The translations under genes and the position numbers were made by a program. 64,000 bases of DNA from Escherichia coli (GTDB taxonomy: Bacteria; Pseudomonadota; Gammaproteobacteria; Enterobacterales; Enterobacteriaceae). Shown piece after piece: positions 8,086 through 55,745 of this stretch. The notes under the pieces were generated by a model. It did no database searches. It was not told where the DNA came from and was given only the letters and a program-made list of their open reading frames with translations. Positions within the stretch are counted from its first letter, which is position 1; each line of letters starts with the position of its first letter. The stretch is taken from the NCBI RefSeq assembly GCF_044647545.1, contig NZ_CP172818.1; one strand, written 5' to 3'.

Positions 8086-8097
8086 CACGCTACCGCC
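8086..8097 (-). promoter_or_regulatory. ops element (RfaH recruitment site) within the JUMPstart sequence of the wza leader
   Basis: + strand cacgctaccgcc is the reverse complement of ops GGCGGTAGCGTG; lies about 180 nt upstream of the wza start codon on the transcribed strand. Confidence 0.75.
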
Positions 8098-8345
8098 CCT
8101 GGCTTTTTAGCTACCAATACACTGATTTAGCTTAATTTTTAAAACCCTCTCAACATACAGTCGTTGATGAGAAAGGGTTATTGCGGAAATTAACTTCCGA
8201 ATATAAGGTGACATTATGGTAATTGAATATTGGCTCTCCAATAATGCAGGAGGAAGTGTTACAGCTAACGGAATAGCAGGCAAGGTAACAATTCGGCAAT
8301 TGGCTATTTTTAAGAATTATATTAAGTGTCATTCAATATGGTTTT

Positions 8346-23430: not shown

Positions 23431-23611
23431 AAGAAATCCTTTCTTAGAGAATTATTGAGGTCCGGTATCATACCGATTGCAATAATGAAATAAGAGCAAA
23501 CGAAGAAACTTTCAGAATTAGGCCCGGCGGCGCAGAAAATTTTGCTATTCGCCTCGCAAGAACGGAGAGCCGTCGATTGACACTAAGGGCGGAGTGACAT
23601 AATTTCAGGAG

Positions 23612-23755
23612 TGAGGGTTAGGGAGAGGTTTCCCCCCTCCCCCTGGTGTTCTTAGTAAGCCTGGAAGCTAATCACTAAGAGTATCACCAGTATGATGACG
23701 TGCTTCATCATAACCCTTTCCTTATTAAAAGCCCTCTTCTCCGGGAGAGGGTTTC
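23612..23755 (+). ncRNA. sibA: SibA antisense sRNA (type I antitoxin of ibsA)
   Basis: Strong promoter ttgaca-N17-taattt at 23577-23605; transcript fully antisense to ibsA; terminator hairpin ccctcttctccgggagaggg + ttt at 23732-23754; ~144 nt. Confidence 0.6.
23652..23711 (-). CDS. ibsA: Type I toxin IbsA (19-aa hydrophobic peptide)
   Basis: Minus-strand ORF atgatgaagcacgtcatcatactggtgatactcttagtgattagcttccaggcttactaa = MMKHVIILVILLVISFQAY. Confidence 0.7.
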   Translation of the reverse strand: MMKHVIILVILLVISFQAY

Positions 23756-23947
23756 CCGTTTCAGCGTCCCGCTGAAATCGTCGGCTTACCTCCTTTCGCC
23801 CTGAATGCAGTCTATCGCTAACGCGTGAACAAAATAGTTTCCCCTGTGATTATTGCGTAACGTCTCGCAAAGAATATTTGCTCGCAGGATCGCAGACTAC
23901 AAAGCCTGCGGATTGACAATCTGATTGTGAAGGCATACTTTCAGGAG

Positions 23948-24083
23948 TGAGGGTAGAGCGGGGTTTCCCCCGCCCTGGTAGTCTTAGTATGCTGGCCAGC
24001 TAATCACTAAGAGCACCACGATGATGATCCACTTCATCATGACCCTTTCCTTATTTAAGGCCCCTTCCTCGGGAGGGGCTTTC
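23948..24083 (+). ncRNA. sibB: SibB antisense sRNA (type I antitoxin of ibsB)
   Basis: Promoter ttgaca-N17-tacttt at 23913-23941; antisense to ibsB; terminator hairpin ccccttcctcgggagggg at 24061-24078; ~136 nt. Confidence 0.6.
23984..24040 (-). CDS. ibsB: Type I toxin IbsB (18-aa hydrophobic peptide)
   Basis: Minus-strand ORF translating to MMKWIIIVVLLVISWPAY, paralogous to ibsA. Confidence 0.65.
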   Translation of the reverse strand: MMKWIIIVVLLVISWPAY

Positions 24084-38015: not shown

Positions 38016-38099
38016 TTAATTTCGATTATTTTTCCCGGATGGAAAATTCTTAGAAACCGATCACATACAGCTGCATTTATTAAGGTTATCATCCGTTTC

Positions 38100-38190
38100 G
38101 CTGAAAAACATAACCCATAAAATGCTAGCTGTACCAGGAACCACCTCCTTAGCCTGTGTAATCTCCCTTACACACACGGGCTTATTTTTT
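38100..38190 (+). ncRNA. cyaR: CyaR (RyeE) Hfq-dependent sRNA
   Basis: gctgaaaaacataacccataaaatgctagctgtaccaggaaccacctccttagcctgtgtaatctccc...gggcttatttttt matches CyaR as I recall it, including the terminator hairpin and U-tail. Confidence 0.8.
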
Positions 38191-52740: not shown

Positions 52741-53541
52741 TCACCACCAGGCGTGGAAGTGGTGAACCGGACCAATACCGTGACCAACTTCCAGCGTGTC
52801 GGCCTGGGCTAACGCCGATGAAAGCCAGCTTTTTGCCTCCTGTACGGTGTCAGCCCAGTTTGTATGGCGCGGGCGCAGTGCAGCCAACGCCGCAGAGAGC
52901 GTACAACCAGTGCCGTGAGTGTTTTTGGTCATAATGCGCGGTGCGGTAAACCGTTGTTCCCCCTCACGAGTAAACAGCCAGTCCGGGCTTTGCCCATCAT
53001 CCAGATGACCACCTTTCATTAGCACTGCGCCACAGCCCATCGCCAACAGCGATCGCCCTTGTTCCAGCATTTCCTGTTCGGTGCGCGCGTGTGGCGCGTC
53101 GAGCAAGGCGGCTGCTTCGGGCAAGTTTGGCGTTATTAATGAAACCTGTGGCAATAATCGACTGCGCAGCGTAGCAACCGCCGAAGGTGAAAGCAGCGGG
53201 TCGCCGCTTTTTGCCAGCATAACGGTGTCGAGTACCACGTTTTGGATCTGATAACGTTGCAACCGTTCTGCCACCGCTTCAACAATATCGGTTTCCGCCA
53301 ACATACCGATTTTAGTGGTGTCGATTCGCACATCACTGAACACCGAATCGAGCTGGGCGGCGACAAAATCAGGCTCAATGCGATACACCGACTGTACGCC
53401 ACGGGTATTTTGCGCCACCAGTGCAGTAATAACTGAGCAACCATAAGCGCCAAGTGCCGAGAAGGTTTTAAGATCGGCCTGAATCCCCGCACCACCACTC
53501 GGATCAGTACCGGCAATCGTCAGAGCGTTAATTCGTTTCAT
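52741..53541 (-). CDS. thiD: Hydroxymethylpyrimidine/phosphomethylpyrimidine kinase
   Basis: 266-aa [37 protein letters not shown]...; 4-bp overlap with thiM. Confidence 0.9.
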
Positions 53542-54326
53542 GCCTGCACCTCCTGCGTCAATTGCCAGAGCGCATCAAGGAAATGTGGAACAAAACTGCC
53601 TGGCCCCTCGCTTCTGGCAACTGCGCGTTCTCCGGCTTGTTTCATCCAGTGACAGGCAGATGCGATATTTTCCAACGTATCGCCTGGTAGCGCACAACAG
53701 GCAGCGACAACCGCCGATAATGCACAGCCAGTTCCTACCACTTTGGTCATTAGCGGATCGCCACCGTGAATGCCAACGATACGATGTCCATCGGTAACAT
53801 AATCCACCTCGCCAGTGACCACGACGATTGCGCCAGTTTCCCGTGCCAGTGTTTGTGCAGCAGGTATCGCGTTAGCTGCGGCATCAGTGGTATCCACTCC
53901 CCGTCCGCCATTAGCAACGCCAGCTAATGCCATGATTTCCGAAGCATTACCACGTATGGCGGTTGGCTTATGAGACAGAAGTTCCAGACAAAAACGGCGG
54001 CGATAATCGAGTGCACCCACCGCTACTGGATCAAGCGTCCAGGGTGTTTGAGAGCGTTTTGCCTGTTCAACGGCGGCACGCATCGCCTGTGCGCGTGGCT
54101 GCGTCAGCGTGCCAACGTTAATCAGCAACGCACTGGCGATTGCCGCAAACTGACTGGCCTCTTCGGTTTCGATGACCATCGCTGGCGATGCACCGAGCGC
54201 CAGTAAGGTATTGGCAGTAAAGGTTTGCACCACATCATTGGTCATACAGTGCACAAGGGGGGAATGTTTGTGAAAAAGATGTAACGCGTGCGCAGATTGC
54301 GCGGAACTCAGCAGGTCGACTTGCAT
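53538..54326 (-). CDS. thiM: Hydroxyethylthiazole kinase
   Basis: 262-aa [42 protein letters not shown]... Confidence 0.9.
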
Positions 54327-54334
54327 AGTTTGCT

Positions 54335-54470
54335 CCTGCCATAACGTGAAGAAGCAATGACCTGGTGGTCCGTGACTTCCCTACGCTGGCATTATCCAGA
54401 TCAGGTGATACGGGTATTTCTCAGCCTTCACGCAGAAGGGCACCCCGAGTCGTTTGGTTGCGATAATAAA
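54335..54470 (-). promoter_or_regulatory. TPP (thi-box) riboswitch in the thiM leader
   Basis: + strand 54374-54446 is the reverse complement of GGGGTGCCCTTCTGCGTGAAGGCTGAGAAATACCCGTATCACCTGATCTGGATAATGCCAGCGTAGGGAAGTC, the thiM aptamer with its CUGAGA element. Confidence 0.8.
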
Positions 54471-54548
54471 TCGCAGAGGAGGATGGTAATGTCCAGCGCA
54501 CGCGTTGTAAACGGGGAAAAACGGCGGTATTACAATAACGTTGTGAAA

Positions 54549-54821
54549 TTATTTGATATAAGAATCCAGCACCTTCAGAACGACATCCAGATCTTCTTCA
54601 CGTTTTAGCTCATCCCCCTGGTGAACGATGTGTTCCGTCAGATGGCCTTTAATCACTTCCCGCATCAGACCGTTTACCGCGCCACGGATAGCAGCAATCT
54701 GTTGTAAAACTGCAGCGCATTCGTGCGGCTCGTCGAGCATTTTCTTGAGCGCCACGACCTGGCCCTGAATCTTACTGGCACGCGCTTTCAGTTTCTGTTT
54801 ATCACGGATGGTATGAGACAT
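54549..54821 (-). CDS. rcnR: Ni/Co-responsive transcriptional repressor RcnR (CsoR/RcnR family)
   Basis: 90-aa [55 protein letters not shown]... Confidence 0.9.
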
Positions 54822-54869
54822 GGCAACACCTGGTTAACAAGAATATGAAAAATCATAGCACTATTAATC

Positions 54870-54904
54870 TACTGGGGGGTAGTATCAGGTACTGGGGGGG
54901 AGTA
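54870..54904. promoter_or_regulatory. Two RcnR operator sites (TACT-G6-N-AGTA) in the rcnR-rcnA intergenic region
   Basis: tactggggggtagta at 54870-54884 and tactgggggggagta at 54890-54904. Confidence 0.7.
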
Positions 54905-54941
54905 GAATCAGATTGCCGAATTAATACTAAGAATTATTATC

Positions 54942-55745
54942 ATGACCGAATTTACCACTCTTCTTCAGCAAGGAAATGCCTGGTTCTTCATCCCCAGCGC
55001 CATCTTACTTGGTGCGCTTCATGGCCTGGAACCAGGGCACTCAAAAACGATGATGGCGGCGTTTATCATCGCCATCAAAGGCACCATTAAACAGGCGGTG
55101 ATGCTCGGACTGGCAGCAACCATTTCGCATACCGCGGTGGTCTGGTTGATTGCCTTTGGCGGGATGGTAATCAGCAAACGTTTTACTGCTCAATCTGCAG
55201 AACCGTGGCTCCAGTTGATTTCCGCGGTGATCATTATTGGCACCGCGTTCTGGATGTTCTGGCGTACCTGGCGCGGCGAACGCAACTGGCTGGAGAATAT
55301 GCACGAGCACGAGCACGAGCACGAGCATGATCATGAGCATCATCACCATCACGAACATGGCGAGTATCAGGATGCCCATGCACGAGCCCATTCCAATGAC
55401 ATTAAAAGACGATTTGATGGTAGAGAGGTCACCAACTGGCAAATTTTGTTATTTGGCTTAACCGGTGGCCTTATCCCCTGCCCGGCAGCAATTACCGTGC
55501 TGTTGATTTGCATTCAGTTGAAAGCCCTGACACTGGGCGCAACACTGGTCGTCAGTTTTAGCATTGGCCTGGCGTTAACGCTTGTCACCGTAGGCGTTGG
55601 CGCAGCAATCAGCGTTCAGCAGGTCGCAAAACGCTGGAGCGGATTTAACACTCTCGCTAAACGCGCCCCCTATTTTTCCAGTCTGTTGATTGGCTTAGTT
55701 GGTGTGTATATGGGCGTACATGGCTTCATGGGCATAATGCGATAA
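54942..55745 (+). CDS. rcnA: Nickel/cobalt efflux protein RcnA
   Basis: 267-aa membrane ORF with His-rich cytoplasmic loop (HEHEHEHEHDHEHHHHHEHGEY). Confidence 0.9.
   Translation: MTEFTTLLQQGNAWFFIPSAILLGALHGLEPGHSKTMMAAFIIAIKGTIKQAVMLGLAATISHTAVVWLIAFGGMVISKRFTAQSAEPWLQLISAVIIIGTAFWMFWRTWRGERNWLENMHEHEHEHEHDHEHHHHHEHGEYQDAHARAHSNDIKRRFDGREVTNWQILLFGLTGGLIPCPAAITVLLICIQLKALTLGATLVVSFSIGLALTLVTVGVGAAISVQQVAKRWSGFNTLAKRAPYFSSLLIGLVGVYMGVHGFMGIMR

Follow-up and report, generated by a model that had tools for sequence, protein, structure and literature searches.

A TPP riboswitch with a Shine-Dalgarno-sequestering platform in the thiM leader of Escherichia coli

The stretch of Escherichia coli DNA analysed here, 64,000 nucleotides long and referred to below as the window, carries a TPP riboswitch in the leader of the thiMD mRNA. 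The reading reached, with a probability of about 97%, is that this riboswitch is a translational OFF switch located in the approximately 150-nt 5′ UTR. It qualifies as a full member of the TPP riboswitch family (RF00059, THI element) with a translational platform that sequesters the Shine-Dalgarno sequence (SD), and it is an already known and ordinary riboswitch that presents nothing new biologically. The basis for this reading was the match to the aptamer model, the identity with E. coli K-12, the two mutually exclusive pairings obtained by folding and the lack of any intrinsic terminator; no evidence contradicting it was found. TPP binding, repression in vivo and the Rho step come from published work on the identical sequence; binding and repression would be expected in this strain as well, and the Rho step is probable.

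An Rfam 15 scan of the whole window at gathering thresholds returned a single match to the TPP model RF00059, located on the minus strand at 54457..54361, with a score of 71.2 bits (E = 5.1e-12) against a gathering score of 54.3. The match covered model positions 1-105 of 105, was not truncated and scored 17 bits above the curated threshold. The preliminary description had placed a minus-strand thi-box aptamer in the thiM leader and had named a scan with the Rfam TPP covariance model as the way to check it; the scan was run and clearly passed, and the aptamer is real. A 48-nt degenerate pattern for the conserved thi-box core (CUGAGA ... ACCUGAUCUGGAUAAUGCCAGCGUAGGGAA) also matched the window only once, at 54377-54424 on the minus strand and with 0 mismatches, and both the CUGAGA junction and the ACCUGAUCUGGAUAAUGCCAGCG pyrophosphate-sensor arm required of a thi-box were present in this exact match. 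None of 100 dinucleotide-preserving shuffles contained the pattern, even when 3 mismatches were permitted. In a 100%-identical E. coli genome (FDAARGOS_497) the NCBI PGAP pipeline annotated a 'TPP riboswitch' at exactly 54457..54361, and the same annotation was found at the corresponding coordinates in a K-12-like genome. Unlike these PGAP-annotated genomes, the RefSeq record of K-12 MG1655 (NC_000913.3 2184000-2188000) lists no thiM riboswitch in its feature table; the discrepancy is one of annotation and not of biology.

The RF00059 match spans 35-131 nt upstream of the thiM ATG. Its P1-closed aptamer core (54373..54452, minus strand) lies 47-126 nt upstream of the A of this codon, which is near the 50-120 nt estimated earlier. 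From the Rfam alignment, P1 is formed by 54451-54448 with 54374-54377, P2 by 54447-54444 and 54442 with 54411-54414 and 54417, and P4/P5 by 54405-54402 and 54399-54396 with 54380-54383 and 54386-54389. P3 consists of 54441-54439 and 54437-54435 with 54424-54429, with C54438 bulged, in a register corrected by the compensatory changes in homologues described below. In the Rfam register, 21 of the 23 modelled pairs around the three-way junction (P1, P2, P3 and P4/P5) were canonical, and all six tested pairs of P3 became canonical once C54438 was bulged. The optional P3a hairpin is absent from the thiM aptamer, model positions 41-51 being deleted in the Rfam alignment, and the model allows this absence. 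Upstream of the aptamer, at the extreme 5′-end of the transcript, a hairpin with a 6-bp stem and a 5-nt loop (CUGCGAU...AUCGCAG-like; 54459..54475, minus strand) appeared in every fold; stabilisation of the 5′-end is one possible role.

The regulated gene thiM, encoding hydroxyethylthiazole kinase, occupies 53538..54326 on the minus strand with its ATG at 54326-54324, as given by the ORF list and by the RefSeq annotation of the identical genome. It is directly followed on the same strand by thiD (52741..53541; ORF list and annotation), which overlaps it by 4 nt, and both genes encode thiamine salvage kinases. Upstream of thiM the ORF list holds rcnR on the same strand (54549..54821, minus strand), and rcnA is divergent from rcnR; the gene arrangement is rcnR-thiM-thiD. 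A consensus scan detected a putative sigma-70-like promoter at 54483..54511 on the minus strand (TTTACA, a 17-nt spacer and TACCAT; 9/12 matches), which probably functions as the thiM promoter, its position fitting a transcription start at 54476. This start was inferred from the numbering of mutants in K-12 thiM, where a mutant of the ribosome-binding site is designated G142C and a start-codon mutant U152A (PMC5499598). With +1 of the thiMD mRNA at 54476 (minus strand), G142 is the second G of AGGAG (54335) and U152 is the U of AUG (54325), and because the published numbering falls exactly on these two bases the +1 was placed there. The interval 54327-54480, which the preliminary description had singled out, is therefore essentially the whole 150-nt 5′ UTR.

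On the strand that it shares with thiM, rcnR ends just 38 nt ahead of the thiM −35 element (gap 54512-54548), and a simple consensus scan revealed no terminator between rcnR and thiM. Given this layout, thiM could be expressed to a substantial extent by read-through from rcnR (which ends at 54549), and thiamine salvage would then be tied to nickel/cobalt status, with the riboswitch residing on a longer transcript. We regard this as very unlikely: a promoter-like site is present where the published +1 would require one, the terminator scan behind the idea is a simple consensus scan, and no data for read-through were found. The mechanism of the riboswitch would be unchanged even if such read-through took place.

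To describe the switch itself, the RNA from +1 to +187 was folded twice, once unconstrained and once with the aptamer pairs imposed to mimic the TPP-bound state. Under this constraint, the minimum free energy (MFE) structure paired the anti-SD UUGCUUCU (54350..54357, minus strand) in 8/8 positions with AGGAGCAA (54330..54337, minus strand), which as read from the sequence comprises the Shine-Dalgarno AGGAG (54337-54333) followed by CAA and forms the 3′ strand of the sequestering helix; the mean P(unpaired) of the SD was 0.007. In the unconstrained MFE fold, positions 54356-54349 of the anti-SD region paired with the anti-anti-SD at 54373..54381 (minus strand), the 3′ strand of P4/P1. The SD core was then open, with a P(unpaired) of 0.36, and the value was 0.54-0.55 on a shorter construct. 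The linker hairpin GACC-ACCA-GGUC (54359..54370, minus strand), located between P1 and the anti-SD, was formed in both states. Mutually exclusive pairings of the anti-SD, with either the SD or the aptamer strand, were in this way obtained in silico, as a translational platform requires. They agree with the model built on chemical and enzymatic probing data for K-12, where the anti-SD is held by the 3′ strand of the aptamer without TPP and sequesters the SD in helix P8 with TPP; the linker hairpin was probed as single-stranded in its ACCA loop (PMC1920254). The earlier suggestion that the aptamer can sequester the ribosome-binding site was thus right in that the SD is masked in the aptamer-enforced fold, but the masking strand is the separate anti-SD (54357-54350) and not the aptamer.

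As a whole the leader was not unusually stable. The MFE of 54300-54480 had a z-score of −1.28, and 24 of 200 shuffles folded at least equally well; this is unsurprising because the RNA is bistable, and the z-score carries little weight. In the MFE structure of 54300-54480 a pairing between the 5′-end and the SD was seen, but it was rejected as an artefact of the arbitrary 5′ boundary, and the fold from the assigned +1 was used instead.

The proposed mechanism is as follows: When TPP is scarce, the anti-SD (54356-54349) would be held by the 3′ strand of P4 and P1 in the aptamer (54381-54373), and AGGAG (54337-54333) would be left open, allowing thiM to be translated. When TPP is bound, helices P1-P5 would lock and the anti-SD would be freed. 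The freed anti-SD and the SD region would then form an 8-bp helix (54357-54350 with 54337-54330) by which binding of the 30S subunit would be blocked. As a secondary layer, the untranslated 5′ coding region of thiM would expose a C-rich rut, and Rho would terminate transcription within approximately the first 40 codons, leaving less thiMD mRNA.

A region of the window suited to this secondary layer by base composition is a C-rich, G-poor stretch at 54242..54286 (minus strand), covering approximately codons 14-28 of thiM and matching the published rut region. In 25-nt windows from +191 to +235 the C fraction was 0.28-0.36 and the G fraction 0.04-0.16, and the region contains several substitutions relative to K-12. 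In K-12, Rho protects approximately +201 to +210 and termination occurs at +231, +237 and +262, while repression at the mRNA level depends on codons 20-34 of thiM and is lost with bicyclomycin (PMC5499598). Transferred to the window, the protected positions are 54276-54267 and the termination positions 54246, 54240 and 54215. The Rho layer, transferred as it is from K-12 to a gene with 8 substitutions in its first 125 nt, is probable in this strain.

That TPP lowers thiMD mRNA, that Rho termination sites occur at +231 to +262 (PMC5499598) and that the C-rich, G-poor tract is present at 54286-54242 could also be taken to mean that control is mainly transcriptional, TPP directly triggering premature termination at an intrinsic terminator or at a directly controlled Rho site instead of masking the SD. 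There is little probability in this. A simple consensus scan found no intrinsic terminator-like site (hairpin followed by a U-tract) in 54200-54950, and an intrinsic-terminator mechanism was rejected on this ground. In K-12, translational fusions of six codons are repressed by TPP, whereas transcriptional fusions of 6-20 codons are not (PMC5499598), and the repression of a short translational fusion is reported to persist with bicyclomycin or in a rho mutant. Furthermore, the thiM rut segment gives ligand control to the unrelated btuB riboswitch, and Rho termination is therefore a consequence of blocked translation (PMC5499598). The 8-bp helix between anti-SD and SD that forms in the fold with the closed aptamer also argues for masking of the SD as the primary step.

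Compared to K-12 MG1655 (NC_000913.3), the 5′ UTR contained a single difference, a T instead of a C at 54465, in the loop of the 5′ hairpin and outside both the aptamer and the SD switch. The aptamer, the linker hairpin, the anti-SD, the SD and the start codon were base-for-base identical. Since the UTR is identical save for this one position outside the aptamer and the SD switch, the biochemistry of K-12 thiM applies directly (PMC1920254, PMC5499598). Eight further differences were all located upstream of the −35 element, the promoter itself being identical to that of K-12, and the first 41 codons of thiM (125 nt) showed 8 substitutions and 2 amino-acid changes. The differences from K-12 thus amount to strain-level polymorphism only, and the genomic position (rcnR-thiM-thiD) and the two-state pairing scheme are the same (PMC1920254). 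Judged by its sequence, the aptamer with its expression platform is the same molecule that has already been studied by crystallography, probing and genetics, and the preliminary description was justified in calling it well known. The aptamer in the window would be expected to bind TPP directly, as published for the identical K-12 RNA (PMC1920254).

Among 5,426 complete E. coli genomes, a megablast search with 54200-54620 gave a match in 5,424. The 153-nt leader alone was present at ≥99% identity in 3,812 of these 5,426 genomes and at 95-99% identity in 1,575. A chance or decayed thi-box look-alike without regulatory role, for which only the unremarkable overall folding energy could speak, is extremely improbable in view of the E-value of 5e-12 at 17 bits over the curated threshold, the lack of any match in the shuffles, the identity of the aptamer with the functional K-12 one, its presence in 5424/5426 E. 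coli genomes and the demonstrations of TPP binding and regulation that exist for the identical K-12 sequence.

A scan with the thi-box pattern of plain DNA from contigs representing one genome per species yielded at least 120 loci. A thiM homologue was located downstream in 70 of the 120 matches listed, with ThiM identities of 57-94% and a start mostly 47-58 nt after the pattern. These thiM-linked loci span Escherichia, Citrobacter, Enterobacter, Kluyvera, Pantoea, Erwinia, Serratia, Pectobacterium, Edwardsiella, Hafnia and others. The remaining 50 of the 120 matches listed, which are matches to the short-P3a thi-box core, had no detectable thiM within 400 nt downstream, and some of these loci end too early to tell. 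Genomes of Providencia, Proteus, Photorhabdus, Xenorhabdus, Thermus, Nitrospira and Zixiibacteriota are among those with thiM-less matches.

An alignment of 68 sequences was made with MAFFT from the window and 67 homologous leaders, all from Enterobacterales and all retrieved by the core pattern. For the whole structure, 90.9% of the cells were paired in the 68 sequences, compared to 36-59% when the 3′ partners were slid by 1-3 columns. In P3, 99.8% of the cells were paired, and three of its pairs displayed compensatory double changes (U-A to C-G, U-A to A-U and C-G to U-A) in 6-7 of the 68 sequences each. These changes fix the register of P3 with C54438 bulged and not with a C·A mismatch. The Rfam register of upper P3, which contains this mismatch, was replaced by the bulged register, which was canonical and covarying in the pair counts of the homologues. 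The pairs of P2 and P4/P5 and four of the five pairs of P1 never varied in the 68 leaders, which is neutral evidence and stems partly from retrieval by the core pattern. The thi-box core was likewise invariant in the 68 enterobacterial thiM leaders, partly because these were selected by the pattern. Because most of the aptamer pairs are invariant in homologues selected in this way, there was no independent covariation apart from that in P3.

Outside the aptamer, the CUUCU core of the anti-SD was conserved in the 68 leaders. At the linker position a hairpin was kept in homologues with different sequences, with weak pair counts in a gapped alignment. Covariation of the ligand-free helix between the anti-SD and P1/P4, and of the linker hairpin, was in the MAFFT alignment no better than in shuffled or slid controls. 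The weak covariation of the helices formed by the anti-SD with the SD and with P1 was attributed to the gaps in the alignment and to the sequence constraints on SD and anti-SD. When each sequence was folded individually under constraint, enforcing the aptamer reduced the accessibility of the SD in 57 of the 68 leaders (median 0.20 vs 0.35; Wilcoxon p = 2.6e-8). The thermodynamic switch was strong in the Escherichia sequences shown (the window and leader L007), and many of the remaining leaders showed it only modestly or not at all.

The leader was split or only partially present, with a coverage below 80%, in 87 of the 5,424 E. coli genomes. In strains ExPEC and ECONIH5 it extends from the promoter to ...GCCAGCGUAG and then gives way to foreign DNA that bears a truncated integrase gene together with an IS3 element. 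The insert in ECONIH5 consists of a decayed integrase and an IS3 remnant, and thiM is found approximately 2.3 kb beyond the junction; the junction in ExPEC is identical. In strain FCI56 the insert is a prophage, whose capsid and tail genes adjoin ...AGAAAUACCCGUAUCACC..., after which the remaining leader and thiM follow. A 41-bp segment, AGAAATACCCGTAT(C/T)ACCTGATCTGGATAATGCCAGCGTAG, is common to both types of junction (junction regions L123 3001-3764, L124 2900-3100 and L126 475-2850). It is equivalent to positions 54421-54381 of the window, where the site is unoccupied, and constitutes the invariant heart of the thi-box.

The exact integrase-side junction was detected in 15 genomes. It had no match among the phages of the phage collection searched, and no description of prophage integration at thiM/rcnR was found in the literature searched. 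The junctions look like the outcome of site-specific integration into the aptamer core. On this evidence we lean slightly towards the view that the 41-bp segment may act as an attachment site on the chromosome, used in a small minority of E. coli genomes by a prophage or integrative element that bears an integrase.

Further RNAs were identified by Rfam in the window. The tandem Sib antitoxin sRNA genes were located at 23577-23726 and 23913-24055 on the plus strand (147.5 and 136.8 bits, respectively), and CyaR/RyeE at 38098-38187, also on the plus strand (86.8 bits); the annotation of a related genome has Ibs toxin genes at the place corresponding to the Sib genes. In addition, the JUMPstart element (RF01707), a cis-acting leader element, was detected at 8086-8124 on the minus strand (57.3 bits; gathering score, 35). 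Both Sib and CyaR genes had been noted before, and Rfam bears them out, but the riboswitch had at the same time been called the only clear cis-regulatory RNA besides these genes, and this has to be corrected in light of the JUMPstart element.

The TPP riboswitch of E. coli thiM was reportedly first described by Winkler, Nahvi and Breaker in 2002, and crystal structures of the thiM aptamer date from 2006. In Gram-positive bacteria, the thi-box riboswitches of Bacillus subtilis tenA and thiC share the TPP aptamer fold and the thi-box, and are built on an intrinsic terminator/antiterminator platform, which is absent from the thiM leader. Within E. coli, the riboswitches of thiC (thiCEFSGH) and tbpA/thiB have the same aptamer family, ligand and thi-box core as thiM, but are found at other loci and with other expression platforms. 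These are also SD-masking platforms and have Rho or pausing layers (PMC5234074, PMC11487190).

As a characterised cis-regulatory RNA that was recognised from raw sequence with nearly exact boundaries, the thiM leader serves as a positive control for the scan. The thiM TPP riboswitch counts among the founding riboswitches and among those studied best; pyrithiamine targets it, and it is a common chassis for synthetic switches. The riboswitch itself is not novel, and the mobile elements inserted in the aptamer core are an only mildly new thread. If the 41-bp segment is indeed an attachment site, an element integrating there would interrupt the aptamer and cut thiMD off from its promoter and from control by TPP, and would thereby constitute a natural knockout of that control in the E. 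coli strains concerned.
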